A DNA stretch of 32,000 nucleotides from Coprobacillaceae bacterium (lineage in GTDB: Bacteria; Bacillota_I; Bacilli_A; Erysipelotrichales; Coprobacillaceae): the NCBI GenBank assembly GCA_963675515.1, contig OY776328.1, positions 1,350,001 to 1,382,000 on the forward strand, written 5' to 3'. A program made the position numbers and the translations under genes. Shown here piece by piece: positions 3,103 to 21,803 of this stretch. How positions within the stretch are numbered: position 1 is the first letter of the stretch; every line of letters starts with the position of its first letter. Below the pieces are notes generated by a model that was not told the origin of the DNA, ran no database searches, and saw only the letters and a program-made list of their open reading frames with translations.

Positions 3103-4917
3103 ATGGCTAAACGCATAAAAATTTCCAAGTCAAAGAACTCTGAATCGTTTTCTGTTATTGACGACTTTACCGATCCTAAAACTAAAAAACGATCGACTTT
3201 TGTTGTCGAACGTCTCGGTTCTCTGGATTCACTATTGAAAAAATACGATACCGACTCTCGCGATGTCGTAATTGAAAGCCTTAATCTCTATGTTTCTAAG
3301 CTACGCGATCAGGATAAGGAAAACAAAGCTTTAATCCCCATCCAATTATCCCCGTCCAAGCTAATTCCTTTAGACGAAGAAAGATTGTTCAATCTAGGCT
3401 ATCTATATCCTAAAAATATAATTTCATCACTTGGAATAAAAGATATCTGTAATAAAATCCAGAATGATCGGAAGTTCAAGTTTGATCTCTATCGGATTGT
3501 TTGTGATTTGGTTTGCACCCGCATAATATACCCAGGGTCTAAACGTTCCTCTTTCAGGGATGCCCATCACTTTTTTGATGCTCCGCAATATCAGCTGGAG
3601 GACGTGTATCGATCTTTACCAATTTTAGCGGAAGAGAGATATTTTTTTGAAAGTGAATTATACAAGAACAGCACCAATATCATGGAAAGAAACAACAGTA
3701 TTCTATACTATGATTGCACCAACTTCTATTTTGAAGTTGAAGAAGAAGACGATTATAAAAAATACGGGAAAAGTAAGGAAAACCGGCCAAACCCCATTGT
3801 TCAATACGGCTTATTTATGGATGCGGATGGGATCCCGATTGCGGACATCACTTTTGAAGGCAATAAGAACGAACAATTTTCCTTAAGAGAGCTAGAGCAG
3901 CAGATTGAAAAAGACTTCGAGTTCAGCAAGTTTATTGTGTGTGCTGATGCCGGACTTAATGGTTGGGAAAAAAAGATCTATAACGACCGAAAAGCTCATG
4001 GCGCTTATATAGTTACCCAGCCGGTAAAAAAATTGAATAAAACTTTGAAGAAATGGGCCACAGACCCCAAAGGATGGAAAATCATTGGTCAGCCGGGATT
4101 ATTCGATATAAGCAAGCTCGATGACACTATAATAATAGATGGCAAAGAACACAATATTAGAGATGTGGTGTTCTACAAGGATAGATGGGTAAAGACAACC
4201 AAAAAATCAGAACAAACCGAAGACAAATACACCCTGGAAGAACACTTGATTGTTTCGTTCAGCTACAAATTCAAACAATATCAAAGCCATATCCGGGAAA
4301 AGAAATTGGAAAGAGCGCGGAAGCTATTGAAAAATCCCGGGAAAATTAAAACCAGTAATCCACGGGATCCAAAATATTATATCAAGAAGATAGAGGCAAC
4401 AGAAAATGGCGAAGTAGCCGATAAGACATATTATTCAATTGACGAAAGCAAGGTTGAGGAGGATGCCAAATACGACGGATTTTATGCGGTCACAACCGAC
4501 TTGACGGATGATAATATGTCCTTAATCATTAGCGCGAATAAGCGCCGTTGGGAGATAGAAGAGAGCTTCGAAATAATGAAGAGCGAACTTAAAACCAGAC
4601 CAATCTATGTATCAAGAAAAGACGCAATCAATGGTCACCTGCTTATCTGCTTCATGGCGTTACTGGTATATCGAATATTGGAAAAAGAATATTTGAAAAA
4701 CAAATATACATGCAGCGAAATCATAGAGACGCTGAGAAAATTAAACGTTACCCATGTAGGTGGAAACAACTATATTCCATCATTCAAACGAACGTTGGCA
4801 ATTGATAAATTGGGCGAAGTATTTGGCTTTCAACCATCGAGAGAAATATTGACGCAAAAATATTTAAAAAAATTCATACAAGTAGCAAATTCAAGAAATA
4901 GTACGAAAATGAAATAG
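3103..4917 (+). CDS. IS1634-family DDE transposase (604 aa)
   Basis: DDE-type blocks 'ILYYDCTNFYFE', 'FIVCADAGLNG' and the IS4-like Y-R-E-K signature 'NKRRWEIEESFEIMKSELK'. N-terminus and length are typical of IS1634-group transposases. SD GAGGTGA (3089-3095). Extended -10 TGGTATAAT at 3074-3082. Confidence 0.8.
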   Translation: MAKRIKISKSKNSESFSVIDDFTDPKTKKRSTFVVERLGSLDSLLKKYDTDSRDVVIESLNLYVSKLRDQDKENKALIPIQLSPSKLIPLDEERLFNLGYLYPKNIISSLGIKDICNKIQNDRKFKFDLYRIVCDLVCTRIIYPGSKRSSFRDAHHFFDAPQYQLEDVYRSLPILAEERYFFESELYKNSTNIMERNNSILYYDCTNFYFEVEEEDDYKKYGKSKENRPNPIVQYGLFMDADGIPIADITFEGNKNEQFSLRELEQQIEKDFEFSKFIVCADAGLNGWEKKIYNDRKAHGAYIVTQPVKKLNKTLKKWATDPKGWKIIGQPGLFDISKLDDTIIIDGKEHNIRDVVFYKDRWVKTTKKSEQTEDKYTLEEHLIVSFSYKFKQYQSHIREKKLERARKLLKNPGKIKTSNPRDPKYYIKKIEATENGEVADKTYYSIDESKVEEDAKYDGFYAVTTDLTDDNMSLIISANKRRWEIEESFEIMKSELKTRPIYVSRKDAINGHLLICFMALLVYRILEKEYLKNKYTCSEIIETLRKLNVTHVGGNNYIPSFKRTLAIDKLGEVFGFQPSREILTQKYLKKFIQVANSRNSTKMK

Positions 4918-6635: not shown

Positions 6636-7784
6636 GTGATGATGATGTTGCACCATAAGGCATACAAGTTCAGGATCTACCCTGATAGGGAACAGGAGAT
6701 GTTGATCTCTAAAACAATAGGGTGTGCACGTTTTGTCTACAATCATTTCCTGGATCTTTGGAATGAGACATATGCGAGTACCGGTAAAGGTCTGAGCTAC
6801 AATTCCTGCTCCGCCATGTTACCGCAAATGAAACGGGATGATAATACGGAATGGCTAAAGGAAGTAGACAGCATCGCCCTCCAATCATCGGTGAAGAATC
6901 TTTCCGATTCTTTTTCAAGGTTCTTCACTAAGCAAAACAGCCACCCGCGATACAAGAGCAAGAAGAATCCGGTTCAAAGCTACACGACCAAGAATGTGAA
7001 CAACAGTATTGCCGTAATCGGCAAATCAATCAAGCTGCCTAAGCTAGGTATGGTAAGGTTCGCCAAGAGCCGGGAGATCAAGGGAAGGATAATTAAGGCG
7101 ACCATCCGGAAAAATCCCAGTGGCAAATACTTCATTTCTGTTGTCGTTGAAGAAAAGATCGAACAATTGCCCAAAACGAATTCGATTATCGGTATTGACC
7201 TTGGCATCCGTGACTTCGCGACATTTTCAAATGGCAGAAAAGTCGCAAACCATAAATTCACCAGCCAGATGGAAAAGAAACTAATCCGCGAACAGAAAAA
7301 GCTGTCCAGACGGGCTCTCCTTGCCAAAAGCAAAGGAATCAATCTTCTTGAAGCAAAGAACTACCAGAAACAAAGACGCAAAGTAGCATTGCTTCATGAA
7401 AAGATAATGAACCAACGCAATGACTTTTTGAACAAGTTGACAACCCAGATCATCAAAAACCACGATGTCATCTGTGTCGAAAACCTGAACACAAAAGGAA
7501 TGTTGCGTAATCATAGACTGGCTAAAAGCATATCTGATGTTTCCTGGGCATCATTTGTGGATAAGCTCATCTACAAGGCTGAATGGTATGGCAGAGAAAT
7601 CATCAAGGTGGACCGCTGGTATGAGTCCAGCCAGATATGCAATAAATGTGGCCACAAGGATGGCAAGAAACCACTCCACATCAGGGAATGGACTTGTCCT
7701 AATTGTGGCAGTACCAATGACCGGGACATAAATGCAAGCAAGAACATCCTGAAAGAAGGACTGCGCATAATAGCATCAACATAA
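6636..7784 (+). CDS. tnpB: TnpB (IS605 OrfB) RNA-guided endonuclease
   Basis: 'KAYKFRIYP' N-terminus. RuvC triad candidates 'IGIDLGIRD', 'ICVENLN' and 'NDRDINASKNI'. Zn-finger 'CNKCGH...CPNCG'. The start is ambiguous among GTG 6636 and ATGs at 6639, 6642 and 6645. Confidence 0.9.
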   Translation: MMMMLHHKAYKFRIYPDREQEMLISKTIGCARFVYNHFLDLWNETYASTGKGLSYNSCSAMLPQMKRDDNTEWLKEVDSIALQSSVKNLSDSFSRFFTKQNSHPRYKSKKNPVQSYTTKNVNNSIAVIGKSIKLPKLGMVRFAKSREIKGRIIKATIRKNPSGKYFISVVVEEKIEQLPKTNSIIGIDLGIRDFATFSNGRKVANHKFTSQMEKKLIREQKKLSRRALLAKSKGINLLEAKNYQKQRRKVALLHEKIMNQRNDFLNKLTTQIIKNHDVICVENLNTKGMLRNHRLAKSISDVSWASFVDKLIYKAEWYGREIIKVDRWYESSQICNKCGHKDGKKPLHIREWTCPNCGSTNDRDINASKNILKEGLRIIAST

Positions 7785-7932
7785 ACAACAACTAAACCGT
7801 AGGGACTACGGGGATAGCTTGGTAAAGAAGAGAAACCGCTGATTATGGTGGATGCACCATAATCAAGTAAGCTCTGTTCCCAAGAATCCCGTGACTTTCA
7901 GTCATGGGAGGTTCAAAAATATAAATTTTTGT
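7700..7932 (+). ncRNA. Predicted TnpB omega/right-end RNA scaffold plus ~16-nt guide (boundaries approximate)
   Basis: By analogy with characterised TnpB systems, the RNA overlaps the tnpB 3' end and the right end. Structured segments are visible, including CCATAATCAGCGG/CCGCTGATTATGG-type pairing at about 7836-7866 and the right-end hairpin at 7888-7908. The guide would be the flank 7917-7932 (AAATATAAATTTTTGT). Confidence 0.35.
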
Positions 7933-7958
7933 GTTAGAGTTTAATCAGGAGGGATATT

Positions 7959-8882
7959 ATGGCTGTATCGTATAACAGACTATTTAAGATGCTTGAACAA
8001 AAGAGTATTTCCAAAATTCAGCTTAAACAACAGTTAGGAATTTCCTCTACGACCCTGGCTAAATTCAAAAAGAATGAATATGTTTCTTTGAAGGTCATAG
8101 ATGAAATCTGCGCCTTGTTGAAATGTCAGCCAAGCGATATCATGGAGATAATCAATCCGGTGGACACCCCGCTGCTTGACAAGCTTAAAGAAGAAAAGGA
8201 AATGAGACTCAAGGGTGGAATATACCACCAGACTCAGATCAAGCTGGCATACAACTCGAACCGGATTGAAGGAAGCCGCCTGAGCGAGGATCAGACTAGA
8301 TACATCTATGAGACAAATTCGATTGTCACCGAAAACAACGAGACGGCGTCCATTGATGACATTATGGAAACAATCAACCACTTTGCCTGTTTTGACTATA
8401 TGCTTGAAATTGCCAACCTTGATTTGAGCGAGGAAATAATCAAGGAATTCCATCGGATATTGAAAACCAATACCACCGACAGCAAAAAAGACTGGTTCAA
8501 CGTAGGGAACTATAAAGGCAAACCAAACATGATTGGCGACAAGGAGACGACAGCACCATCAAAAGTCAAAGGCGAGATGGCCAAGCTGCTTGCTGACTAT
8601 CAAGAATTGGCCAAGATCGATTTCGAGGATATTGTTGAATTCCACTACCGGTTTGAAACAATCCATCCATTCCAAGATGGCAATGGCCGGGTAGGACGGA
8701 TGATAATGTTCAAGGAATGCCTGAAAAACAATATCGTCCCATTCATCATAGACGAGCAACACAAGCTGGTATATCACCGTGGGCTAAAGGAGTTTGGGAC
8801 CAAGAGAGGATATCTTATCGAAACTTGTCTGTCGGCCCAGGATCGCTATCAAGCTTTGATGGATTATTTCAACCAAGATTAA
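7959..8882 (+). CDS. XRE-type HTH / Fic-domain fusion protein (class II Fic, putative AMP-transferase)
   Basis: Canonical Fic motif HPFQDGNGRVGR (nt 8664-8699). Inhibitory-helix motif S-N-R-I-E-G, i.e. [ST]xxxE[GN] (nt 8256-8273), lies N-terminal to the core. The first ~65 aa, 'ISKIQLKQQLGISSTTLAKFKKNEYVSLKVIDEICALLKCQPSDIME', look like a Cro/C1 HTH. SD GGAGGG. Confidence 0.85.
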   Translation: MAVSYNRLFKMLEQKSISKIQLKQQLGISSTTLAKFKKNEYVSLKVIDEICALLKCQPSDIMEIINPVDTPLLDKLKEEKEMRLKGGIYHQTQIKLAYNSNRIEGSRLSEDQTRYIYETNSIVTENNETASIDDIMETINHFACFDYMLEIANLDLSEEIIKEFHRILKTNTTDSKKDWFNVGNYKGKPNMIGDKETTAPSKVKGEMAKLLADYQELAKIDFEDIVEFHYRFETIHPFQDGNGRVGRMIMFKECLKNNIVPFIIDEQHKLVYHRGLKEFGTKRGYLIETCLSAQDRYQALMDYFNQD

Positions 8883-8922
8883 GCACAAATGAAGGATGTT
8901 CATTTAGAAAGGCTTTTTCCAA

Positions 8923-9102
8923 ATGGCTGCAATTACATTTGCGAAACATATCATCATTTCTGATATCTCGGCTTTGAAAAAAATCGATGACATGCTTAGT
9001 CATTCTTCAGTCCATTATTATCGAGCACCGATAAGAAAAGCTGATGTCATCAATCCCCATGGCAAGAAGTATGTGGCAGACAAATTGACTGCAAAATTTT
9101 AA
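8923..9102 (+). CDS. Hypothetical 59-aa ORF downstream of fic (weak call)
   Basis: Manual translation: MAAITFAKHIIISDISALKKIDDMLSHSSVHYYRAPIRKADVINPHGKKYVADKLTAKF*. Only a weak SD (GAAAGG, 10 nt upstream) and no recognisable motif. It may be a gene relic. Confidence 0.2.
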   Translation: MAAITFAKHIIISDISALKKIDDMLSHSSVHYYRAPIRKADVINPHGKKYVADKLTAKF

Positions 9103-9172
9103 GAGTTGATATCAGCTGATTGATTATTGAATCTTCAGCATCGCAATCCGTTTGAATTAACTGTTTAACATG

Positions 9173-9217
9173 AAAAAAGTATCCTGAGGAACTGAAATGT
9201 CTTGGGGATACTTTTTT
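9173..9217. terminator. Possible bidirectional terminator downstream of rpiR-like (minus strand) and the fic region (plus strand)
   Basis: AAAAAAGTATCC (9173-9184) pairs with GGATACTTTTTT (9206-9217), but the loop is long (21 nt). Confidence 0.4.
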
Positions 9218-9236
9218 AGCTATGACTGGAATTCGG

Positions 9237-9986
9237 TTATAGAAGCTTGCTGATATGCGATGTCAGCACATCGATATAGAGGAAAAACACGATCTGGTTT
9301 TCCAAATACTGGTCGAAATTCTGGTTCGATGAAGAGGGAACCCAGATGTAGTTGTCACAGCGGTTCTTGATGGAAAGCTTGTTGTTCATGGTGATGACTG
9401 TCAGGTTGAAATTGATCTTCTCCTTGGCCTCCTTCAAGGTAGCTTTGAAGGCTTCAAGCCCGTTGCCGCTGTTGGTAAAGATCAATACCAGATCGTTCTT
9501 GGTGGCGATATGGGGCATTTCCTGCATTTCGTCATTGGATATGAAGATAGCCTTTTTGCCGATCTTGAACAGGTTGTATTGCATCATCTTGGCAGGCAGG
9601 GAGCTTTTATGGGCACCGGTTACTATGACGCTGTCAGCCTTGATGATATCGCCTGCGAGCTTGTTAATCTTGTCGTAATCCAGGGTGTCGTCGAGGATGG
9701 ATATCAGCTGGCTGTAGCTGCTAAGCAGAGTGTCGTTTTCAATCTTGTCCTCGCTGCCCTGTTTCTCGAAGCGGAAGACATCAAACTTGAATTCGTTGAA
9801 ACCGTCATAACCAAGTTTCTGGCAGAATCTGGTGATGGTCGATTGCGACACCTTGTACTTTTTCGAGATGGAACTCAATGAACCCCGCAAGATAAGGTCA
9901 GGATTGTCTTTAAGGATATTATAGATGATCAGCTCCTTTTTGGTAAAGGTGTCCTTCTGGATTTCAATCTTGTCAAATGGATTCAT
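9237..9986 (-). CDS. MurR/RpiR-family transcriptional regulator (HTH_6 + SIS domain)
   Basis: 'LSSISKKYKVSQSTITRFCQKLGYDGFNEFKF' is the RpiR HTH signature. The C-terminal half has a SIS-like fold pattern ('VIVTGAHKSS...LVLIFTNSGN'). Confidence 0.85.
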   Translation of the reverse strand: MNPFDKIEIQKDTFTKKELIIYNILKDNPDLILRGSLSSISKKYKVSQSTITRFCQKLGYDGFNEFKFDVFRFEKQGSEDKIENDTLLSSYSQLISILDDTLDYDKINKLAGDIIKADSVIVTGAHKSSLPAKMMQYNLFKIGKKAIFISNDEMQEMPHIATKNDLVLIFTNSGNGLEAFKATLKEAKEKINFNLTVITMNNKLSIKNRCDNYIWVPSSSNQNFDQYLENQIVFFLYIDVLTSHISKLL

Positions 9987-10036
9987 TGGTCTTCCCCCTC
10001 TAATAATACAACTATTATATCAAAAATAATGGTATT

Positions 10037-11236
10037 TCAAAACTGTTTTAATTCTTTTGCTACATGAATCACCTGGTCGATAAAATCATCTCCATTGCCT
10101 TTTTCCAGGCGGCTGATGTATGTTTCGAAGTATTTTCCATAATCATCTTCACTTACGAAATAGTTCGAATAGTTTTCACTGTAACCGACAATTATGACCA
10201 ATTTGTCATTGAAGGCGTCCTTGATCTTCTTGCCTAAAGAAGATGTTATGTCCCCGGGCAGGGAGACAAACATCAATTCGCCCAGAAAGAGAATATTGCT
10301 TGTAAGTTTCAGTTTCATCGGGCTCTTTTTTTGCTTTAGTTTAAGTGCGCGCAAGAGGGTGGCCTCGTACTTTGGATCACTCAAGGCTTCAATCCGTTTG
10401 ATTTCACTGTTGGTGAATTCATCCTGGCCGTAAAATTCGTATTCTTCAACTACCTGGGCTGACTGGATATCATCAATTTTCAAAGGTGTATCTTTCATGT
10501 TTGAAAATTGGTTGAACAGTTCGTTTGTGAAACGGACAACCTCTTCGACTCCCTCTTTTTGGCGGTAGAAGCGGGTCGATACATCGCCGGCGGCACCGTT
10601 GACGATCATGCAGGGAATGCCGGATGTTGCCTGGTATTTCTGGCGGATGGCGCCGAAGATGTCGGCTGAAAGCTTTGTATTGGTTCCATTGAGGATTGTG
10701 GGATGGCAGGCCAGGGCCAACATGGTGCAGATTGTCCCGTTGTCATTGCAAAAATCAAGTTTGGTCAGCATCTTGTCTGAATAGCCATTCATTTCGTTGC
10801 GGTTTCCATAGAGACCTTCGATTTCAACCTGGCTGATCCTTACGCCTGACTCTTTAAGGCTTGCAAAGGCGTTATCGATGCTTGTTACAAACTGATCTTT
10901 CAACTTATCGTGCAATTCTTCTTCCACTTCGACTTCTTCGAAAAATGGCTTGAAGTAGGCGGGCGCCGAGTGGGTGTGGATGCACCCGATAATGATATTT
11001 TGATCGGGCAGCCTGTACTTTTCCTTGATTATCTCTTTTACTGGCAAGATTACGCTATCCTCGATTATGATTGAATCAAGCATGGAGATGACCATGCTTT
11101 TTTCACCTGTTTTGATGATCAATGTATTGATTTCGATGGGATCGAGGACCCCGGTTGATTTTTCCTTACGGCTATATCCTGCAATTGCGACACTGTGGTC
11201 GGGTGTGATGTTCATTTTATTATATCCTATTTCCAT
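10037..11236 (-). CDS. Neutral/alkaline ceramidase-like amidohydrolase (N-terminal ceramidase domain family)
   Basis: 'ITPDHSVAIAGYSRKEKSTGVLDPIEINTLII' and 'IIGCIHTHSAPAY' resemble the N-terminal domain and His-x-His-Ser zinc site of non-lysosomal ceramidase-like proteins. The start is moved to ATG 11234-11236, which has GGAGGT 6 nt upstream. Confidence 0.5.
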   Translation of the reverse strand: MEIGYNKMNITPDHSVAIAGYSRKEKSTGVLDPIEINTLIIKTGEKSMVISMLDSIIIEDSVILPVKEIIKEKYRLPDQNIIIGCIHTHSAPAYFKPFFEEVEVEEELHDKLKDQFVTSIDNAFASLKESGVRISQVEIEGLYGNRNEMNGYSDKMLTKLDFCNDNGTICTMLALACHPTILNGTNTKLSADIFGAIRQKYQATSGIPCMIVNGAAGDVSTRFYRQKEGVEEVVRFTNELFNQFSNMKDTPLKIDDIQSAQVVEEYEFYGQDEFTNSEIKRIEALSDPKYEATLLRALKLKQKKSPMKLKLTSNILFLGELMFVSLPGDITSSLGKKIKDAFNDKLVIIVGYSENYSNYFVSEDDYGKYFETYISRLEKGNGDDFIDQVIHVAKELKQF

Positions 11237-11411
11237 AATGCTACCTCCGCCATTGATTATAGCATGGCTCACCTTAAAATGAAAGACAATTCAAAAAAAT
11301 AAAATTATTCTTGCAAAGTGATTCTTTTATATGCTATGCTTAGTTTGTCAAATGAAACCGGTTAGCACATATGACAACAAAAACTACAAATATTTAGAGA
11401 GGGAGGCAATT

Positions 11412-12785
11412 ATGTCATCTACCAAAAAAGGCTTCATGCAAAGGTTCCAGGAAATCCTTGAAACCTATGTAGTACCCGTAGCAACAAAAATTTCCCAACA
11501 ACGACATCTGGCTTCAGTCCGCGACGGACTGACCATCCTGGTTCCAGTAACCATCATCGGAGGTTTCGCCATCCTGCTGGCGATGCCACCAGTCAACGCT
11601 TCTTTGGAAGCTACCAATTTCATCTATTCGATCCTGGTCGGTTGGCGCAACTGGGCGTCTGCCAATATGGCGACTTTGCTGATACCATACTATCTGACCA
11701 TTGGAATCATCTCGATTTATGTGGTCCTGGGTGTTTCTTATCAGCTTACCAAGTTCTACAAGATGGACACCATCTCGAATGTGATTTCAGTACTGCTTGT
11801 CTACCTATGCGTGGCAGGCGTTCCCCAATCGCTTACAAGCGGTGAAACTGTTGTAACTGCGATCCCGATGACCAACCTTGGCGCTTCGGGGATGTTCATG
11901 GCGATGATCATAGCGATCCTTGTCGTGGAAATCAATCATTTCTTTGTAGCGAAAAAACTGGTTATCAAGCTTCCGGACTCGGTTCCCCCAAACGTGGCCG
12001 CTCCGTTCAATGTCCTGATTCCCGGTATCGTCAACCTGATTCTTTTCATGGTATTAAATGGTCTTAGCACTTCAATCCTGGGAGTAGGCCTGCCAAGACT
12101 CATTTACTCGGCATTCCAACCTTTGCTTAGCGCTACTGGTTCATTGCCTTCGATCATCCTGATCAATGTCCTGATGACTATCTTCTGGTTTTTCGGGATC
12201 CATGGGGCGAACATGGTCGGTGTTGTAACGACACCATTGGTGACTCTTGGTCTTACCTTGAATGCCGAAGCTTACGCTTCTGGACAGGAGCTTCCTGCGA
12301 TTTTCGCCGGTGCTGTCAACTCGGTTTATGGCGGATGGATTTCTTATTTCGCCGTGGTTCTGGTCATCCTGCTTTTTTGCAAATCAACCCAGGCCAAATC
12401 GGTGGCTAAAATCGCCGTCGTTCCGGCATTCTTCAATATCAATGAACCATTGATTTTCGGTTTGCCGACCGTATTGAACCCGTTCACTCTGATCTGCTTT
12501 TTGATCTGTAACAACCTGAATTTCACGATTGTCTATTTCCTGATGAAAAGTGGATTCCTGGGTAAATTCTTCGTCCAGCTGCCTTTTACCGTACCCGCAC
12601 CTTTGCAGGCCTGGCTGGCGTCAATGGATATCAAATCCATCCTTGTCTGGGCCGGTCTTCTTGTCCTGGATATGGTCATCGCCCTGCCATTCTTGAAGGC
12701 TTACGACAAGCAGCTGGTGTCGCAAGAAAAACTGGAAGAACAAGAATCCCTGGTTGGACAAGAAATGTTGAAGAGTGCTGATTAA
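11412..12785 (+). CDS. PTS EIIC component, lactose/cellobiose (chitobiose) family
   Basis: 'FMQRFQEILETYVVPVATKISQQRHLASVRDGL' is the typical CelB/ChbC N-terminus. About 10 TM segments. 'FFNINEPLIFGLP' motif. The start is moved to ATG 11412, preceded by GAGGGAGG. Confidence 0.85.
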   Translation: MSSTKKGFMQRFQEILETYVVPVATKISQQRHLASVRDGLTILVPVTIIGGFAILLAMPPVNASLEATNFIYSILVGWRNWASANMATLLIPYYLTIGIISIYVVLGVSYQLTKFYKMDTISNVISVLLVYLCVAGVPQSLTSGETVVTAIPMTNLGASGMFMAMIIAILVVEINHFFVAKKLVIKLPDSVPPNVAAPFNVLIPGIVNLILFMVLNGLSTSILGVGLPRLIYSAFQPLLSATGSLPSIILINVLMTIFWFFGIHGANMVGVVTTPLVTLGLTLNAEAYASGQELPAIFAGAVNSVYGGWISYFAVVLVILLFCKSTQAKSVAKIAVVPAFFNINEPLIFGLPTVLNPFTLICFLICNNLNFTIVYFLMKSGFLGKFFVQLPFTVPAPLQAWLASMDIKSILVWAGLLVLDMVIALPFLKAYDKQLVSQEKLEEQESLVGQEMLKSAD

Positions 12786-12804
12786 TCAGTACTCTTTTAC
12801 TTAG

Positions 12805-13503
12805 ATGAAGATAATATTCAACGCTGACGATTTCGGGTACACCAAGTCAGTAACCGATGGCATCATCTTTGCCTGCAAGAACGGTGTTGTCAAGTCGACG
12901 ACCGCTCTTGTCAACACGCCTTATCTGGAATACAGTTTTCAGGAATCACTGGGCTGTCCCGATCTGGGTGTGGGAGTCCACCTTAACCTGACAATCGGAA
13001 AATCGTTGACCAAAAACAAAACGCTGAGTGATAAGGCCGGCAACTTTTACAAGCCAGCCCAGCTAAGGGATAAGGAAATAGACCTTGATGAGGTATATCT
13101 CGAGTTCAAGGCCCAGATTGAAAGGTTCATCGAAGTGTTCGGCCGCTTGCCCAGCCATCTCGACAGCCATCATGGGATGCATGATTTCAGGGACAATCTA
13201 ACAGTGACCATGGCTCTGGCCAAGGAATATGGCCTGCCGGTGCGCCGTTATGGCAGCTATAAGTTTGTCGGGGGCTTTTTCAATGACACGGTGACCGTTG
13301 AGGCACTAAGTAAACTTATCGAAAGCCATTACGGAGAGAATATCGAGATCATGACCCATCCCGGGGCCTGCGATCTCGAACTTTATATGAACAGCTCGTA
13401 TTCATGGCAGCGCGTCAGGGAACTGATGGTTCTATGTGATGGAAGACTTAAGGAATATCTCGATGGGATGGATATTGAAGTGACAAACTATTTGGAGGAT
13501 TGA
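12805..13503 (+). CDS. YdjC/ChbG-family carbohydrate deacetylase
   Basis: 'MKIIFNADDFGYTKSVTDGI' (the DDFG metal-binding motif), 'HLDSHHGMH' and 'THPG' are the YdjC signature blocks. Confidence 0.85.
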   Translation: MKIIFNADDFGYTKSVTDGIIFACKNGVVKSTTALVNTPYLEYSFQESLGCPDLGVGVHLNLTIGKSLTKNKTLSDKAGNFYKPAQLRDKEIDLDEVYLEFKAQIERFIEVFGRLPSHLDSHHGMHDFRDNLTVTMALAKEYGLPVRRYGSYKFVGGFFNDTVTVEALSKLIESHYGENIEIMTHPGACDLELYMNSSYSWQRVRELMVLCDGRLKEYLDGMDIEVTNYLED

Positions 13504-13504
13504 A

Positions 13505-14866
13505 ATGAAAGAAATTAGAATAGGATCCGGGGCCGGATACGGCGGAGACCGGATCGAACCGGCCATCGACCTGATGCAAAACGGCAAGCTCGACTATATG
13601 ATATTCGAGTGCCTGGCGGAAAGGACGATCGCCCTGGCCAATCTTGAAAAGGCCAAGGACCCCGCCAAGGGTTACAACCACCTGTTCGAGTATCGCTTCG
13701 AAAAGGTGCTTGATGAATATGGAAAAAACAACCGGATCAGGATTGTGACAAACATGGGGGCGGCCAACCCGGCCAAAGCGGCCCTTAAGCTTGTGGAGAT
13801 GGCCAAAAGCCGCAATATGAATATCAAAGTTGCTGCGGTTGTCGGCGACGATGTTCTTGACAAGCTTGATAAGTACCAGGATGAAAAAATCCTGGAGACC
13901 GGCCAGCCCCTGGCTTCAATCATGCCCCAGGTCATTTCCGCCAATGCCTATATCGGGGCAAAGGGCATTGCAGAAGCGCTGGCAAACGGGGCCGAGGTGG
14001 TAATCACCGGCCGGGCGGCTGATCCGTCATTGACCTTGGGAATCCTGCTCCATGAATTCAACTGGAGTATGGATGACTACGATCGCCTTGGCCAGGGGAT
14101 GATTGCCGGCCATCTGCTTGAATGCGCCGGTCAGGTCACCGGGGGCTACTTTGCCGATGGGGCGACCAAGACGGTTCCGGATCTTTGGAATCTGGGATTT
14201 CCAATCGCGATAGTCAAGGAAGACGGCTCTCTGGAAATCACCAAGACGCAAACATCAGGCGGTCAAGTCAGCGAGATGACTTGCCAGGAGCAGACAATAT
14301 ATGAAATCCAGGATCCTGAAAATTACTACACGCCTGATTGCATCGCCAATTTCAGCGGGATCAAAATCGACCAGACTGGCCATGACCGGGTGGCAATCGC
14401 CAATGTCAAAGGCAAACCATCCAATGGCAAATACAAAGTCAGCGTCGGTTACCAGGACTGTTACATCGGTGAAGGCCAGATATCCTATGGCGGTTTCAAT
14501 GCCTACAAGCGCGCAGTTATGGCCAAAGAAATCCTGGAAAAGCGGTTCGAACTTACCGGAATGGAAATAGATGAAGTCCGCTTCGATTTGATCGGCTGTG
14601 ACAGCCTGTTCAAGAAGACCCTGCCTGAACCAAAAGAATACAGTGAAATCCGGCTGCGGGTCGCCGGACGGACAAAAGACAAAAATACGGCGATCCGGAT
14701 TGGACAGGAAGTTGAATCGCTCTATACCAACGGTCCCTTCGGCGGGGGCGGAGTTTCCATGAATGTCCAGGAGGTCGTCTCAATCGCTTCAATACTGATC
14801 GACCAGAGCGATATCGAAGTTGAAGTAGAATATTTTAAAAGCGGGGTAGAAGATGAAACTGCATGA
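13505..14866 (+). CDS. DUF1446 / AtuA-like protein (acyclic terpene utilisation family, function unknown)
   Basis: 'IRIGSGAGYGGDRIEPAIDLMQNGKLDYMIFECLAERTIALA' and 'VITGRAADPSL...GHLLECAGQVTGGYFAD' match the AtuA/DUF1446 pattern as I remember it. The start lies 1 nt after the ydjC stop, with GGAGGA upstream. Confidence 0.75.
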   Translation: MKEIRIGSGAGYGGDRIEPAIDLMQNGKLDYMIFECLAERTIALANLEKAKDPAKGYNHLFEYRFEKVLDEYGKNNRIRIVTNMGAANPAKAALKLVEMAKSRNMNIKVAAVVGDDVLDKLDKYQDEKILETGQPLASIMPQVISANAYIGAKGIAEALANGAEVVITGRAADPSLTLGILLHEFNWSMDDYDRLGQGMIAGHLLECAGQVTGGYFADGATKTVPDLWNLGFPIAIVKEDGSLEITKTQTSGGQVSEMTCQEQTIYEIQDPENYYTPDCIANFSGIKIDQTGHDRVAIANVKGKPSNGKYKVSVGYQDCYIGEGQISYGGFNAYKRAVMAKEILEKRFELTGMEIDEVRFDLIGCDSLFKKTLPEPKEYSEIRLRVAGRTKDKNTAIRIGQEVESLYTNGPFGGGGVSMNVQEVVSIASILIDQSDIEVEVEYFKSGVEDETA

Positions 14867-15152
14867 AATAGCCCATTGCCGCACCGGCGACAAGGGCAAC
14901 ATCTCGGTGATTTCCGTGATCGCCTATGACAAAAAAGACTATGAACTGATCAAAGCAAAAGTGACCGAGGCCAAGGTTCAGGATTTCTTCCAGGACATCG
15001 TGAAAGGGACTGTTGCCCGTTACACCCTCGACAACATCGCTTCCTTGAATTTCGTGATGGAAGATGCCCTGGGCGGCGGAGTGACCAGGTCCCTGGCCCT
15101 GGACAAGCATGGCAAGACGCTTAGCGGTGCTTTGCTGGAAATGGAGATCTAG
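14853..15152 (+). CDS. Small DUF4387-like protein (corresponds to the C-terminal extension of full-length AtuA proteins)
   Basis: 99 aa: 'MKLHEIAHCRTGDKGNISVISVIAY...LNFVMEDALGGGVTRSLALDKHGKTL'. It overlaps the DUF1446 stop by 14 nt, suggesting translational coupling. The family assignment is from memory only. Confidence 0.55.
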   Translation: MKLHEIAHCRTGDKGNISVISVIAYDKKDYELIKAKVTEAKVQDFFQDIVKGTVARYTLDNIASLNFVMEDALGGGVTRSLALDKHGKTLSGALLEMEI

Positions 15153-15153
15153 G

Positions 15154-16071
15154 ATGGAGACAATAGTCATTGCCGGTGCCGGAACGATGGGGGCATCAAT
15201 GGCTCTGGCCTTCGCCCGTTTCAACTTCCCGGTCCATGTTTACGACATAGCCAAGACTGCTTTGAAAAAAGGCAGTGAATCGGTGGATATCGCCCTTGAG
15301 GGACTGGTGAGTGCGGATGTGGTTTTACAGGCTGATGTTCCATCTATTATCGGCAATATTTCCTACACAACTGATTTGAAAGTGTTTGAAAAGGCTGATG
15401 TGGTCATCGAATCGATTGTCGAGAAACTTGAAATCAAGGAGAGTTTCTACCGTGACATTTCCAAACTGGTCAAACCGGAATGTGTCATCTGTTCGAACAC
15501 CTCGGCGATACCGATATCCACAATGGCAGATTATGTCGAGATTCCAGAACGGTTCTTGGGAATGCACTGGTTCAATCCGTCCCATCTTATCCCCCTGATT
15601 GAAATCATCAAGGGTGAAAAGACCGGCCAGAAATATGTGTATTTCATCTATGATCTGGCGACAAGAATCGACAAGCAGCCGGTCGTCATCAACAAGGATG
15701 TGAAGGGATTTGTCGCCAACCGGATCCAGTTCGCTATCCTAAGAGAAGCCTTGCATCTGGTTGAAAACGAAGTGATCTCAGCCAAAGACCTCGACAAGGT
15801 AGTCCAATATTCCCTGGGAATACGCCTGGCTTCATATGGACCGCTTGCGATAGCTGATTTTGGCGGTCTGGACACCTTCTTGCATATCTCGAAGTTTTTG
15901 AATCCCGACTTGTGCGACTCCCATGAGGCTTCACAATTGCTTGAAGAGTTGGTTTCGCAAAACAAGATGGGGTTGAAAACCCGGGGCGGATTCTATGAAT
16001 ACGATGAATTGGAGGCAAATGAGGCCATAAAAGTCCGTGATATGAAATTGGCTGAACAATTGGGTTCATGA
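15154..16071 (+). CDS. 3-hydroxyacyl-CoA dehydrogenase-family NAD-dependent oxidoreductase
   Basis: Rossmann 'IVIAGAGTMGASMALAFA', then 'ESIVEKLEIKESFY', 'SNTSAIPIS' and 'GMHWFNPSHLIPLIEII', typical of the 3HCDH N- and C-domains. The start is moved to ATG 15154, 1 nt after the preceding stop. Confidence 0.8.
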   Translation: METIVIAGAGTMGASMALAFARFNFPVHVYDIAKTALKKGSESVDIALEGLVSADVVLQADVPSIIGNISYTTDLKVFEKADVVIESIVEKLEIKESFYRDISKLVKPECVICSNTSAIPISTMADYVEIPERFLGMHWFNPSHLIPLIEIIKGEKTGQKYVYFIYDLATRIDKQPVVINKDVKGFVANRIQFAILREALHLVENEVISAKDLDKVVQYSLGIRLASYGPLAIADFGGLDTFLHISKFLNPDLCDSHEASQLLEELVSQNKMGLKTRGGFYEYDELEANEAIKVRDMKLAEQLGS

Positions 16072-16123
16072 TTAAGCCAAGCTTATGCATTCCAAGAAAT
16101 TGAAATAGACTCACATAAAACAT

Positions 16124-16156
16124 AAACCCGGAAAGTGCATTTTGCCTACCGGGTTT
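16124..16156 (+). terminator. Operon-end terminator
   Basis: AAACCCGG (16124-16131) pairs with CCGGGTTT (16149-16156), followed by TTAT. The loop is 17 nt. Confidence 0.6.
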
Positions 16157-16620: not shown

Positions 16621-17484
16621 ATGAAAAAGACATTTAAATTCATCACTATTTGGTTTGTAAGCTTTTCATTTTTGTTTCTGGGAATAACTCCGGTGGCTGC
16701 AGCACCAACCAAGTTGCCAACTTATGATTATGTTGCTATGGGCGACTCGGTGGCTGCGGGAGTTCGGGCTGTTTATGGTCAATTGCCGGGTTGGGAAACA
16801 AGTTCCGATTATGGCTACACTGATCTGGTGGCTGGCTGGTTGGATAATTTAGGCCTTTTGGGAACATTTGATGAAACTTACGCCATTTCCGGACAAACTT
16901 CGGCCGACTTGCTTGGGGTAACTGAAAGTAAAACCGTAAGTAAAAGCTTGAAAAAGATAGAAATAGTGACTATAACAATTGGGGGCAATGATTTCTTGGG
17001 GCCGCTCTATGCTTTTTTAAGTTATTGTGTGCAAAATGGAATTGATTTTGATCTCACTGATCCTGACTTCTATGCTGACATCACTGATGTTCTTAATGGA
17101 ATTATCTTAAATGGACCATCAACAGGAGCAGCTTTGCAACAAAACCTGACCGAAATCATTCAAAACATATACAAGGCAAATCGAAAAGTCCAAATATATG
17201 TAATGGGTTATTACAATCCAATCCCAGATATTATCTATGACCCTACTTTCAATACGTTAGTTAATTCTTACATTGAAGCAGCAGTTAATGGGGCTGATCC
17301 TGATGGATCTAATGTAACCTATGTCCAAACAATAACCCATATCACTCAGTTGAATTCTTACAGTATGGGATATTTACTCGATGATACTGGATTTGGTGTA
17401 CCGGATATTCACCCGACTGAAGTTGGTTACGGTGTTATAGCCAATAGATTTGAAAATGCGATAGCTGTGGATTTTGGTATTTAA
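16621..17484 (+). CDS. Secreted SGNH/GDSL-family hydrolase (lipase/esterase-like)
   Basis: Signal peptide MKKTFKFITIWFVSFSFLFLGITPVAAAP. Block I 'VAMGDSVAAG', block II/III 'TIGGND', block V 'DIHPT'. SD GAAGGTGA. Confidence 0.8.
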   Translation: MKKTFKFITIWFVSFSFLFLGITPVAAAPTKLPTYDYVAMGDSVAAGVRAVYGQLPGWETSSDYGYTDLVAGWLDNLGLLGTFDETYAISGQTSADLLGVTESKTVSKSLKKIEIVTITIGGNDFLGPLYAFLSYCVQNGIDFDLTDPDFYADITDVLNGIILNGPSTGAALQQNLTEIIQNIYKANRKVQIYVMGYYNPIPDIIYDPTFNTLVNSYIEAAVNGADPDGSNVTYVQTITHITQLNSYSMGYLLDDTGFGVPDIHPTEVGYGVIANRFENAIAVDFGI

Positions 17485-17516
17485 TTTGTATTTACTTTGA
17501 ATTTTCCAACCCATAG

Positions 17517-17541
17517 GGGTCATCCAATGATGGCCCTTTTT
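17517..17541 (+). terminator. Rho-independent terminator after the SGNH hydrolase gene
   Basis: GGGTCATC-caat-GATGGCCC stem (one G-T wobble) followed by TTTTT (17537-17541). Confidence 0.65.
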
Positions 17542-17958
17542 GATATGACAATAAATTCGACTACGATACTGACAGCAGCATCAAAACAGCACAAAATTGA
17601 AGCAAGGTTAATACAAATTTTTTGAAACTTATGCAAATATGCCTCCCGGTTATTCAAAAAATTTCTCTGTTGCATAATTGTGAATTACTTATCGGAATAT
17701 AGAGGGACATGCCTATAAAGCAACCATTGCTTGAGTTGGTCCTGTATTTCTTATCATAATCTTCCTAAATTGTAAGTACTTGAGACTGCTGAAAGATCAT
17801 GATGTTCATTATGGCAGGATAGCTGTTATATTAGCATAATATTATTAGTGGGTTAAAGCTTTTGTTGAGGGTCTGCAAGGCGCCCACTCTCAATCCCTGA
17901 ATTAAATAGCAATTATGTTGTTTTGTTTACTTTGATTGAAATTATATCGTTCACGCAC

Positions 17959-17990
17959 CAGGAACATTATTTTACAGGAACATTATTTTA
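17959..17990. repeat. Perfect tandem duplication, 2 x 16 bp (CAGGAACATTATTTTA)
   Basis: Read directly from the sequence: 17959-17974 equals 17975-17990. It lies about 70 bp upstream of the predicted eut promoter. Confidence 0.9.
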
Positions 17991-18003
17991 CCAAATTGGG
18001 GCC

Positions 18004-18051
18004 AAATAATAGTTCTATTCGTTCTAGACCAATTAATAGTTATATTTGTTC
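18004..18051. repeat. Two 21-bp imperfect direct repeats (AAATAATAGTTCTATTCGTTC / AATTAATAGTTATATTTGTTC) abutting the -35 element
   Basis: 18004-18024 versus 18031-18051, 18/21 identical, 27-bp period. Confidence 0.6.
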
Positions 18052-18055
18052 ATCA

Positions 18056-18083
18056 TTTACATGAATTGTATATATGATATAAT
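18056..18083 (+). promoter_or_regulatory. Candidate sigma-A promoter for eutA-eutBC
   Basis: TTTACA (18056-18061), 16-nt spacer, TATAAT (18078-18083), about 77 nt upstream of the eutA ATG. Confidence 0.4.
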
Positions 18084-18159
18084 ATCATAAATGTGTATTT
18101 ATTATTGGGTCGATAAATTATTATCGGAGATGATTCTTAATGCAATAAAGGGGATTTCT

Positions 18160-19563
18160 ATGGAAACTATTTTAAGTGCAGGTATCGATATAGGGACAAC
18201 TACCACCCAAGTGATATTTTCGGAGCTTAAAATTGTCAAAAAGGGCGGTTTTGGCGAAGTTCCGAGATTTGAAATCGCGGATAAACATATCATTTATCGC
18301 AGCCCAGTGTTTTTCACACCGCTTGATGGTGAAAATATCGATGCTTTGGGCGTCAAGGCCCTTGTTGCAAATGAATATAAGAAAGCAGGTTTTTTGCCTG
18401 AGGATATGGATTCGGGTGCGGTCATTGTCACTGGTGAATCGGCAAGAAAAGAAAACGCAAAGACCGTGGTAGAGGAGCTGGCTTCATTCGCAGGAGATTT
18501 TGTAGTTGCAATTGCAGGTCCGGAACTGGAAAGCGTATTGGCTGCCAAGGGGGCTGGTGCTCTTGATTTGTCAACCAGAACAGGAAATATTGTCATAAAT
18601 TACGATATAGGTGGCGGTACTACCAATGTTTGTGTCTTCAAAGATGGCAAGATGGTGGATAATGCCTGTCTCGACATTGGCGGAAGACAGATAAGATTCT
18701 TGGATAGTAGAGTCTCCTATATTTCCCCAAGCATGAAAAGGTTGATAGCGAAAAAGAATCTGAAAATTGCTGAAGGAGATTCAATCGGCGACGATGATTG
18801 TCGTAGAAATATCGATAAGCTACTTAATATTGTCGTCAATTTGCTTGAAAAGCTGATATGGGATCCGGAGAATAACGAGCTCGAGCTGGTAGTCACCAAT
18901 CATCTGCTGACCAAAAGAATGATTCCGGATATTGTCACATTCTCCGGCGGGGTTGGAGCCTGCATGGATAAACTTCACCAGGATGACTTTCAATTCGGAG
19001 ATATTGGCGTCCTGATGGGGAAAAAACTGGCTGAAGTGGAATATTTCAAAAATGTCAGACATGTTTCCAAGGAAACTTTGAATGCCACTGTGATTGGAGC
19101 CGGTAACTATTCAATGGATATTTCTGGAAGCACAATCGAGTATGGCAATATTTCATTTCCGTTGAAAAGACTGTTGGTCCATGAGATTTATTTCAATTGC
19201 GGGAAAAATATTCACACACAGATAGAATCTTTCTTGGATAATGAGGATGAGCATTTGGGCGGCCCGTTTGCGTTTTATGCAAAAGGATTGCAAAATCCCA
19301 ATTTTGCCACGATTGAATCCTTTGCAACGGAAATAGTTCAAGGGATGAGGGATTATTTTGTGGAAGGCAACCCTTGCGTAATCATCGTAAAAGAGGATAT
19401 GGGAAAAGCGTTGGGACAGGCAATCAAGCGCCGAATCCCGGAACATCCTATTATATGTATTGATGGAATCGAGTGTCACAGCGGCGATTTTGTGGATATC
19501 GGGGTGCCATTAAGCAAAGGCAAGGTCATACCGGTGATGGTGAGGTCATTAGTGTTCGGTTGA
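18160..19563 (+). CDS. eutA: Ethanolamine ammonia-lyase reactivating factor EutA
   Basis: 'ILSAGIDIGTTTTQVIFSEL' and a second ASKHA-type phosphate loop 'INYDIGGGTTNVCVF'. The length (467 aa) and the position upstream of eutB are typical. The start is moved to ATG 18160, with AAAGGGGA upstream. Confidence 0.85.
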   Translation: METILSAGIDIGTTTTQVIFSELKIVKKGGFGEVPRFEIADKHIIYRSPVFFTPLDGENIDALGVKALVANEYKKAGFLPEDMDSGAVIVTGESARKENAKTVVEELASFAGDFVVAIAGPELESVLAAKGAGALDLSTRTGNIVINYDIGGGTTNVCVFKDGKMVDNACLDIGGRQIRFLDSRVSYISPSMKRLIAKKNLKIAEGDSIGDDDCRRNIDKLLNIVVNLLEKLIWDPENNELELVVTNHLLTKRMIPDIVTFSGGVGACMDKLHQDDFQFGDIGVLMGKKLAEVEYFKNVRHVSKETLNATVIGAGNYSMDISGSTIEYGNISFPLKRLLVHEIYFNCGKNIHTQIESFLDNEDEHLGGPFAFYAKGLQNPNFATIESFATEIVQGMRDYFVEGNPCVIIVKEDMGKALGQAIKRRIPEHPIICIDGIECHSGDFVDIGVPLSKGKVIPVMVRSLVFG

Positions 19564-19584
19564 GAAATTAAGGAGGGTCATAAT

Positions 19585-21651: not shown

Positions 21652-21666
21652 ATCTTATACAAGACT

Positions 21667-21709
21667 AAAATCCCCATTTTCTTTGGCTTACAAAGAAAAT
21701 GGGGATTTT
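21667..21709 (+). terminator. Strong rho-independent terminator after eutBC
   Basis: Perfect 19-bp stem AAAATCCCCATTTTCTTTG / CAAAGAAAATGGGGATTTT with loop GCTTA and a T-rich tail. Confidence 0.85.
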
Positions 21710-21803
21710 ACCATTATCCACCTTCAATAAACACAAGTATTTGGGAATTTCAAAATTGAACCACTTATTAATACACTCTATCTTGATGTGATATTCAAGT
21801 TTA

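Follow-up and report, generated by a model that had tools for sequence, protein, structure and literature searches.

We analyzed a 32,000-nucleotide stretch of the genome of a Coprobacillaceae bacterium (contig OY776328.1, hereafter the window) and describe a seven-gene cluster at positions 9237-16156 that appears to combine a sugar module and an organic-acid module in one locus. The sugar module consists of an RpiR-type regulator and a ceramidase-like hydrolase, here called CerL, divergent from a phosphotransferase system (PTS) EIIC and a YdjC-family protein; the acid module consists of AtuA (DUF1446), a DUF4387 small subunit and a 3HCDH-family dehydrogenase, and would be fused to the EIIC-YdjC part in a single operon. 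We propose that the locus forms a horizontally mobile island and serves to catabolize a PTS-imported sugar bearing an organic-acid (acyl) substituent, a reading to which we give about an even chance of being correct. The proposal builds on what was observed directly, namely the identity of each gene, the protein folds, the conservation of catalytic motifs and the repeated co-localisation of the genes.

Every protein scored above the Pfam gathering score of the family assigned to it in an earlier note on this DNA. The minus strand carries the RpiR/MurR-family regulator (9237-9986) and, after a gap of 50 nt, CerL (399 aa; 10037-11236). Beyond a divergent control region of 175 nt (11237-11411), the plus strand encodes a lactose/cellobiose-family EIIC (11412-12785), the YdjC-family carbohydrate de-acetylase/de-acylase, an accessory member of the cluster (12805-13503), AtuA, the predicted large subunit of a two-subunit C-C lyase (13505-14866), its small subunit (14853-15152) and an NAD dehydrogenase (15154-16071). 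The spacing described in the earlier note is exact (19 nt from EIIC to YdjC, 1 nt from YdjC to AtuA, a 14-nt overlap between AtuA and the small-subunit gene, and 1 nt to the dehydrogenase gene), as are the coordinates of the ceramidase-like and RpiR genes transcribed divergently from the 175-bp region. The ribosome-binding site GAGAGGGAGG precedes the EIIC start, and the overlap suggests that AtuA and its small subunit are translationally coupled.

CerL matches Ceramidase_alk (PF04734) with 60.1 bits (cut-off 32.1). In Foldseek searches with its AlphaFold2 (AF2) model, which has a predicted local distance difference test score (pLDDT) of 95.4, the only strong structural relatives are the neutral ceramidases of P. 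aeruginosa and human (best matches 2zws, 4wgk and 2zxc, E about 1e-25, template modelling (TM) score 0.77-0.80 normalized to the query). CerL covers about half of these 630-670-aa targets (target TM score 0.49-0.51) and ends at 399 aa. The motifs HTHS (87-90), GNRN (144-147), HPT (178-180) and D192 are conserved in 27-30 homologues, as are GDVS(T)R (217-222; T221 nearly invariant in A3) and PGD/E (327-329), in which P327 is invariant and G328 and D329 nearly so, with E in locus L031. HTHS, HPT and Y352/356/359 are invariant among the homologues aligned, and the motifs align with those of human neutral ceramidase. We saw no N-terminal hydrophobic signal peptide when the sequence was inspected by eye, and CerL has neither the C-terminal ceramidase domain nor the secreted/ecto location. 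Because the full neutral-ceramidase catalytic fold and the metal/catalytic motifs are retained, a de-acylase role is credible for CerL as a predicted cytoplasmic, catalytic-domain-only Zn hydrolase. Its PTS context makes a soluble sugar conjugate a more likely substrate than ceramide.

The CerL family is small, with 210 matches at E <= 1e-5, all about 400 aa. A homologue with 37% identity occurs in high-GC human-gut metagenome contigs (L112-L119, L122, L123 and L128; for example L115, 7327-12173). Units of the L112-L119 type contain a BglG-type antiterminator, a Glc/Bgl-family EIIBC, CerL and Mem_trans, and neither a glycosidase nor AtuA, so that CerL appears to occupy the usual slot of the phospho-beta-glucosidase. 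Mem_trans, an organic-anion-type carrier, is the most constant partner of CerL among homologues of 35-49% identity (12 of 13 loci). The occupied glycosidase slot, together with this constant carrier, suggests that CerL is a conjugate-splitting enzyme.

AtuA matches PF07287 over residues 4-442 of 453 with 511 bits (gathering score 22.8). Its AF2 model (pLDDT 85, predicted TM score 0.81) has a sole strong match in the PDB, 9evf_A (E 2e-24, TM score 0.70/0.69, 14% identity), all other matches being at E >= 2e-5. The entry is titled 'Citramalate lyase - ADP - pyruvate complex', and the chain in 9erq/9evf was named 'AtuA family protein / citramalate lyase subunit A (cmlA)' by its depositors. At the level of sequence the link to CmlA was too weak to accept with phmmer (E 0.18) and was accepted only after the structural match; the AtuA sequence profile matches 9erq_A at E 6e-4. 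Cml (cmlAB) splits citramalate directly into pyruvate and acetate without CoA or acyl carrier protein (ACP) (bioRxiv 10.64898/2026.01.16.699985), and the 'AtuA-like lyase' ThnQS breaks its substrate at a tertiary hydroxylated carbon beside a free carboxylate to give a 3-oxoacyl product (PMC12016498). The chemistry of the family is thus the breaking of a C-C bond at a hydroxylated carbon that lies beta to a free carboxylate, which leaves a ketone; in the Cml reaction the second product is acetate. The earlier statement that AtuA has no assigned chemistry is therefore outdated. The same note had assigned the DUF1446/DUF4387 pair an unknown step in the pathway; this step is most likely cleavage of the released acid and not a reaction on the sugar.

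The window enzyme is not a CmlAB orthologue, given the 14% identity, the phmmer E of 0.18 and the profile E of 6e-4. An unexplained DUF1446 gene lies beside methylaspartate ammonia-lyase in the enterobacterial methylaspartate pathway (PMC4682846); no methylaspartate-pathway genes (mal, glutamate mutase, fumD) were found in the window or its relatives. The substrate here is almost certainly not citramalate. The next structural matches of the AtuA model after 9evf are aspartate kinases with low TM scores, and the N-terminal part of AtuA proteins may bind nucleotide.

The small subunit scores 125 bits against PF23544, the AtuA ferredoxin-like domain that partners AtuA-family lyases, and its gene adjoins AtuA in 81 of 82 loci. 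AHxRxGDKG, R56, GGxT, D84 and GK are invariant. A role as a ferredoxin electron carrier was rejected, since the single Cys is not conserved, which implies that there is no Fe-S cluster, and the name refers to the fold only. No relatives were found in the PDB with the single sequence or with a 15-sequence profile.

The neighbourhood was surveyed from both of these proteins. From AtuA, a 27-sequence alignment led to 80 genome loci, in which open reading frames (ORFs) were called and compared with the window proteins by BLAST; from CerL, we examined four distant homologues and scanned metagenomes with the CerL alignment, which gave 80 loci, mostly from the human gut. The CerL identity-band counts take in only loci long enough to judge. 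Starting from AtuA, the full set was found in L001 and L003 (two contigs at 83% identity), L002 (a Coprobacillaceae metagenome-assembled genome, MAG), L015 (Faecalibacillus faecis) and L036 (Anaerorhabdus), and further in three Collinsella genomes (L034, L053, L054) and Clostridium intestinale (L031). Truncated versions are found on short contigs of Thomasclavelia and Erysipelotrichaceae. RpiR, CerL, a Lac/Cel EIIC, AtuA and the small subunit make up the recurring set, to which YdjC is added in some loci; downstream comes either a 3HCDH protein or, as in L036, L085 and L086, a CoA-transferase that may be accompanied by thiolase. In Collinsella and C. intestinale, gene order and strands are rearranged, and Lac-family EIIB and EIIA genes are present.

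Starting from CerL, a homologue at 52% identity has the same seven-gene cluster, whereas one at 43% has the sugar unit only. At 38% identity, CerL and RpiR are divergent from AtuA, the small subunit, a family-III CoA-transferase, a thiolase, an S15 hydrolase, YdjC, EIIB, GH1 and EIIC; at 37% ([Eubacterium] hominis), they are divergent from a CoA-transferase, the small subunit, AtuA, LacI, YdjC, Mem_trans and EIIC. All seven long metagenomic loci with CerL at >= 50% identity carry RpiR, EIIC, AtuA, the small subunit and the dehydrogenase. Within the 35-49% band, EIIC and RpiR are retained in 9 of 13 loci and AtuA with the small subunit in 8 of 13, and below 35% none of the cluster partners is present in the metagenomic loci. 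RpiR adjoins CerL in every PTS-linked relative.

PTS-linked AtuAs fall into at least five separate clades of a neighbour-joining tree, and monophyly of these copies, which are scattered across the tree, was not found (the tree is unbootstrapped and carries no support values). The rearranged gene orders and the multiple AtuA clades argue for repeated recruitment, not one inherited accident. A link that recurs and survives rearrangement and partner swapping is a signature of functional coupling, and the idea that the cluster genes form a conserved functional unit across phyla is supported by these comparisons. The neighbourhood test proposed in the earlier note thus came out in its favor: DUF1446 and DUF4387 recur with EIIC, with or without YdjC, in Erysipelotrichales, Collinsella and C. 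intestinale. We found no study of this gene combination in the literature on DUF1446/DUF4387, on AtuA with YdjC/PTS or on a free-acid 3-hydroxy-3-methylglutarate (HMG) lyase.

Alternatively, two unrelated modules could be co-travelling on mobile DNA, a chitobiose/beta-glucoside-like PTS unit (RpiR, CerL, EIIC, YdjC) and an organic-acid unit (AtuA, DUF4387, 3HCDH), without a common substrate. Consistent with this, 70 of 82 loci with AtuA and its small subunit have no PTS/CerL partner, some CerL-PTS loci (L084, L112-L119) have no AtuA, relatives retain a separate LacI regulator ahead of AtuA, and the block in the window has island-like GC content at third codon positions (GC3) and insertion sequence (IS) and TnpB elements on its flanks. 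It is countered by co-localisation in three phyla, in varied gene orders and across at least five AtuA clades, by the 7/7 association in the closest CerL group, by the 1-nt gap that joins the modules in one operon here, and by the persistence of the PTS/CerL link while the partner of the AtuA pair switches between dehydrogenase and CoA-transferase. We therefore regard independent travel as unlikely.

Protein identity to L001/L003 is uneven along the cluster, with 97% for EIIC, 94% for RpiR, 81% for CerL, 78% for YdjC, 83% for AtuA and 70% for the dehydrogenase; this mosaic might stem from recombination inside the cluster or from constraint that differs strongly between the genes. L003 (JAQVCV010000051.1), a MAG labelled 'Bacteroidales bacterium', has the gene content of L001 and resembles the Erysipelotrichales-type cluster, and the label is probably a binning error.

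The AtuA-family gene and its partner also occur in other surroundings. When neighbors in the 82 AtuA loci were clustered and the frequent clusters annotated, AtuA-DUF4387 emerged as a portable two-gene module with three recurring settings. The first contains a sigma-54 activator, a CitMHS citrate-type transporter, AtuA, the small subunit and CoA-transferase A/B, with or without thiolase, and looks like a free-acid utilization operon yielding acetoacetate. It is present in Clostridium, Enterococcus and Fusobacterium (L018-L020, L022, L030, L044, L046, L076 and others), and in C. beijerinckii-type loci a dCache chemoreceptor follows the CitMHS-AtuA unit. The second pairs a LacI or PAS-HTH regulator, AtuA and the small subunit with a CocE/NonD (S15) hydrolase, often together with an Opp-type or sugar ABC transporter, GH13, a PF00756 esterase or butyrate-pathway genes. 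The third is the PTS setting, with either a Lac-family EIIC and CerL or a Glc-family EIIBC and a metallo-beta-lactamase (MBL)-fold hydrolase; the latter form (LacI, EIIBC, MBL-fold hydrolase, AtuA, small subunit) is found in Lacrimispora and Paenibacillaceae (L011, L012, L016, L027). Overall, the hydrolases beside the AtuA pair in these other loci are of esterase type, namely CocE/NonD S15 (26 loci), PF00756 esterase, BD-FAE and MBL, and the sugar systems are Lac-family PTS, Glc-family EIIBC, sugar ABC transporters, GH1 and GH13; both sets of neighbors share an acyl-sugar theme.

CoA-transferase A/B follows the AtuA pair in about 15 loci. The A subunit passes the equivalog model of AtoD (acetoacetate:acetyl-CoA transferase; 321 > 315), and B is of the 3-oxoacid CoA-transferase B type; the neighbors further include thiolases of the acetyl-CoA C-acetyltransferase type or butyrate-pathway genes. 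Since the transferase is of the AtoD type and is joined by thiolase, the commonest downstream chemistry is acetoacetate activation and thiolysis. Gene context in relatives thus points to an acid that yields acetoacetate, rather than to a 3-hydroxyacylated N-acyl amino sugar. Taken together with the reaction of the family, the most economical substrate for the lyase would be HMG, which, as the methyl analogue of citrate, would fit the CitMHS carrier. As the specific substrate, HMG remains a tentative suggestion that we consider possible but improbable. In loci with a family-III CoA-transferase ahead of thiolase, the lyase might act on a CoA or sugar monoester and yield an acetoacetyl ester.

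The last enzyme of the operon scores 182 bits against 3HCDH_N and 78 bits against 3HCDH. Its nearest relative in the PDB is FHMPC dehydrogenase (4om8, E 1.7e-63), ahead of 3-hydroxybutyryl-CoA dehydrogenases at E about 2e-47, which places it in the FHMPC-dehydrogenase-like (non-CoA) branch. It carries GMHWFNP...IEII, aligned with 4om8 and 4kug, and GFVANR. No equivalog cut-off was reached in NCBIfam, the best scores being 265.8 against 500 for FHMPC_DH NF042925 and 219 against 408 for the Hbd type. A literature search on (S)-3-hydroxybutyrate dehydrogenase in the 3HCDH family found nothing useful.

The remaining proteins of the sugar module belong to familiar PTS-associated families. RpiR has the expected architecture of an N-terminal HTH_6 (62.5 bits) and a C-terminal SIS domain (28.8 bits), reaches no equivalog cut-off in NCBIfam and is probably a phosphosugar-sensing repressor. 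EIIC matches PTS_EIIC (PF02378) with 151 bits and passes the TIGR00410 lacE subfamily model (287.1 > 236), although it falls far short of the chitobiose equivalog NF007634 (122 < 760); the 'chitobiose-type' EIIC of the earlier note is thus correct for the generic Lac/Cel subfamily and not for chitobiose specificity. YdjC scores 169 bits in Pfam and lies just under the cut-off of the ChbG equivalog NF002559 (207.9 < 227). YdjC is present in 3 of the 7 closest metagenomic loci and is also missing from L002, where a BD-FAE esterase lies downstream in its place, and from L015. It therefore seems to be dispensable and the least conserved member of the cluster. The PTS/RpiR part as a whole points to a phosphorylated sugar derivative.

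No homologues of EIIA, EIIB, GH1 or Mem_trans were found in the window with tblastn or by Pfam searches of its other large ORFs, and these ORFs likewise include no phospho-glycosidase (GH1 or GH4), NagA or NagB by Pfam. The absence of the canonical partners (EIIA, EIIB and GH1 by tblastn, NagA/NagB by Pfam of the large ORFs) had been noted earlier and is borne out, and EIIC is an orphan within the window. The further claim that the odd enzymes replace these partners does not hold, because EIIA, EIIB and GH1 accompany the odd enzymes in L031, L034, L054 and L085.

A canonical operon for chitobiose or N-acetylglucosamine (GlcNAc) oligosaccharides, similar to chb, in which the odd genes are minor or detoxifying, would account for the Lac/Cel-family EIIC and for the 208 bits of YdjC on the ChbG model, and RpiR-type regulators control amino-sugar PTS systems such as MurR. 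We consider such an operon very unlikely. EIIC reaches only 122 of 760 on the chitobiose equivalog and YdjC is under its cut-off; the window lacks EIIA, EIIB, GH1 and Mem_trans by tblastn, and its other large ORFs lack GH4, NagA and NagB by Pfam; and YdjC is the least conserved member, the constant partners being CerL, AtuA, the small subunit and the dehydrogenase. The E. coli chb operon (ChbBCARFG) likewise combines a Lac/Cel EIIC with a YdjC-family de-acetylase acting on a PTS-imported N-acylated beta-glycoside. The window locus differs in the absence of ChbA, ChbB, ChbF (GH4) and ChbR, in its RpiR-type regulator and in the unmet equivalog cut-offs, and CerL, the AtuA pair and the 3HCDH enzyme have no counterpart in chb.

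For the acylated-sugar pathway we infer an order of steps, a mode of regulation and a role for each enzyme as follows. The Lac/Cel-family EIIC, with EIIA and EIIB encoded elsewhere, would import and phosphorylate the acylated sugar, and CerL, with YdjC where present, would strip the acyl group(s) in the cytoplasm. The resulting hexose or hexosamine phosphate would enter glycolysis, and the sugar phosphate or the phosphorylated conjugate would relieve RpiR repression at palindromes overlapping the EIIC promoter. The AtuA-type heteromeric lyase would then cleave the freed beta-hydroxy acid at its hydroxylated carbon to acetate and a keto acid; with HMG as candidate acid, the products would be acetoacetate and acetate. 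Finally, the FHMPC-dehydrogenase-like enzyme may reduce or interconvert the keto product, for example acetoacetate with 3-hydroxybutyrate, and so stand in for the acetoacetate CoA-transferase and thiolase of relatives. The earlier note had proposed import and phosphorylation followed by de-acylation by YdjC and the ceramidase-like enzyme. That outline is supported by the PTS/RpiR part and by the fold and motifs of CerL, with the qualification that YdjC, found in 3 of 7 loci, is dispensable.

Several points weigh against this pathway. Neutral ceramidases hydrolyse amides, whereas the 3-hydroxy-3-methylglutaryl sugar conjugates of plants are esters, so that the bond type expected of CerL and the HMG idea fit together imperfectly. 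The YdjC relatives of known activity are GlcNAc N-deacetylases, which favors an amino sugar over a plain glucoside. In other words, CerL and YdjC point to amide-linked acyls on an amino sugar, and the esterases associated with AtuA and the HMG idea suggest an ester linkage. A LacI regulator of its own accompanies the AtuA module in L015, L024, L034, L054 and L086, which indicates that the sugar and acid modules can be regulated separately. At 14% identity to CmlA, only family-level chemistry would transfer to the window AtuA, and the ADP in 9evf hints that AtuA-type lyases require a nucleotide. The 3HCDH enzyme, for its part, could instead take a CoA ester as its substrate, or work before the lyase step.

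Another candidate, which follows the substrate idea of the earlier note, is an N-(3-hydroxyacyl) amino sugar such as an N-3-hydroxybutanoyl or lipid-A-like glucosamine (GlcN) derivative, from which CerL and YdjC would remove N-acyls, while the 3HCDH enzyme would oxidize the 3-hydroxy acid and AtuA-DUF4387 would act on the 3-hydroxy or 3-oxo acid. The amidase fold of CerL with its intact ceramidase motifs and the proximity of YdjC to the ChbG N-deacetylase model would suit such a substrate. So would the use of 3-hydroxy acids by 3HCDH enzymes, the beta-hydroxy acids that form the substrate class of AtuA-type lyases, and the CoA-transferase and thiolase of relatives, which also suit the handling of 3-oxoacids. 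However, the characterized AtuA-type lyases act at tertiary alcohols, which are not oxidizable, and if a dehydrogenase and a lyase shared one secondary 3-hydroxy acid as substrate, they would be redundant with each other. Neither NagA nor NagB was found in the window or in any relative locus examined, and the commonest neighbors of the AtuA pair are esterases, not amidases. This candidate therefore has, in our judgment, a rather low probability.

Comparison with characterized systems is consistent with the acylated-sugar pathway having been assembled from known families. CmlAB (Raoultella planticola; PDB 9erq/9evf) has an AtuA-family large subunit with a second subunit and the same overall fold (TM score 0.70), and frees acetate from a hydroxy acid in a reaction that needs neither CoA nor ACP. 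It differs in the 14% identity of its large subunit to the window AtuA and in its methylaspartate-pathway context (PMC4682846), which is absent from the window locus, and the small subunit encoded here has no relative in the PDB. ThnQS, from anaerobic naphthalene degradation, is also a two-subunit AtuA-type enzyme (PMC12016498), and its 3-oxo product goes to a thiolase, as might be compared with the thiolase in L036, L085 and L080. ThnQS and Pseudomonas AtuA (acyclic terpenes) act on CoA thioesters of hydrocarbon-derived acids in Proteobacteria/Desulfobacterota, whereas the window locus has a sugar PTS context in fermentative gut Bacillota and lacks acyl-CoA dehydrogenase, carboxylase and hydratase genes.

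The neutral ceramidases (P. aeruginosa 2ZWS/2ZXC; human 4WGK) have in common with CerL the catalytic fold and motifs of the His/His/Glu(Asp)/Tyr type. CerL is 17% identical to them, has 399 rather than 630-670 aa, lacks the C-terminal domain and, by eye, a signal peptide, and its genes are tied to sugar PTS rather than to lipid metabolism. FHMPC dehydrogenase (4OM8), the best relative of the window 3HCDH enzyme, has a non-CoA substrate and the same catalytic motifs; the window enzyme is below its equivalog cut-off (266 < 500) and has no vitamin B6 degradation context. In the MurR-MurQ-MurP system for N-acetylmuramic acid, an RpiR/SIS regulator is divergent from a PTS operon, and the organic-acid substituent is removed in the cytoplasm. 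The window locus likewise has an RpiR gene divergent from a PTS operon that would import a sugar bearing an organic acid. It differs in its PTS family, in the use of CerL/YdjC instead of the etherase MurQ to remove the acid, and in its lyase/dehydrogenase module, which the MurR system lacks; the window RpiR scores 42.5-46 on the MurR equivalog, against a cut-off of 378-408. The parts thus belong to known families, and their combination is most aptly viewed as a PTS operon for the catabolism of a substituted sugar, set apart by its unusual hydrolase and by a lyase whose chemistry has only recently become clear.

The cluster loci are mainly found in human-gut Erysipelotrichales and Collinsella contigs, which makes a conjugate from the diet or the host the probable substrate, one whose breakdown by microbes is undescribed. 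We suggest, with fairly low confidence, that this represents an unrecognized acylated-sugar route in gut anaerobes, in which CerL replaces the phospho-glycosidase and a CoA-independent AtuA-type lyase cleaves an HMG-like acid to acetate and acetoacetate. With such a route, a first physiological role would be assigned to the large AtuA/DUF4387 subfamily of Bacillota, to the family of short CerL proteins and to an HMG lyase acting on the free acid. It would give physiological context to AtuA/DUF4387 (at least 8000 relatives scored) and to the cytoplasmic ceramidase-like family (about 210). Should free HMG or an acid like it prove to be the substrate, the lyase would be the counterpart of HMG-CoA lyase that does not depend on CoA.

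The control region contains an EIIC promoter with a -35 element TTGCAA (11311-11316) and an extended -10 element TGcTATGCT (11332-11340), and TTG.A (-35) and TA...T (-10) are invariant columns over 10 aligned orthologous intergenic regions. TGAA-N6-TTCA palindromes occur at about 11280-11295 and over the EIIC -35, and a TTGAAT-N4-ATTCAA-type palindrome over the -35 recurs in L002, L034, L036, L054 and L083-L086. Palindromes of the form TGAA(T)-N4-6-(A)TTCA, which lie upstream of and over the -35, are candidate RpiR operators. The EIIC leader contains an inverted repeat, 11345-11354/11368-11377 (TTGTCAAATG / CATATGACAA), which encloses the conserved ATGAAACCGGTTA, itself containing the palindrome AACCGGTT. 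This repeat is also found in L001 and L083, and partly in L002. ATGAAACCGGTTA was rejected as a catabolite-responsive element (cre), as it has more than one mismatch from the cre consensus; matches to that consensus are not enriched in the window (20, against 19.3 expected).

Two hairpins bound the transcripts, both assessed by folding against 200 shuffles. The minus-strand hairpin at 9173-9217, with a 12-bp stem followed by U6, is a strong intrinsic terminator of the CerL-RpiR transcript (minimum free energy -14.5 kcal/mol, z = -4.78; 0/200 shuffles fold equally well). The terminator-like hairpin that closes the five-gene operon (AAACCCGG...CCGGGUUU stem, 16124-16156, plus strand; -14.5 kcal/mol, z = -1.59) was equalled by 13 of the 200 shuffles. 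The terminator at which the earlier note had ended the operon is thus present, with modest support. A consensus terminator scan of the window detected neither hairpin, owing to loop length.

GC3 is 0.54-0.70 in TnpB, Fic and all seven cluster genes (6636-16156) and 0.31-0.47 in the downstream genes (16621-31186), and the 6636-16156 block looks like a horizontally acquired island. The window contains IS elements of the DDE_Tnp_1 (3103-4917) and Mutator/IS256 (21869-23068, minus strand) types and an IS605-type TnpB (6636-7784). The L083 copy of the cluster lies directly against ISL3 transposases and a group II intron reverse transcriptase. Immediately upstream of the cluster in the window (7959-8882, plus strand) is the gene for an HTH (Cro/C1-type) and Fic-domain protein, and a Fic protein is also found upstream in L001. 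Farther downstream, the large and small subunits of ethanolamine ammonia-lyase, EutB and EutC, are fused in one 688-aa ORF (19585-21651, plus strand) that follows EutA (18091-19563). No further eut or microcompartment genes were found among the large ORFs of the window, and the IS256-type transposase lies directly after the EutB-EutC fusion.

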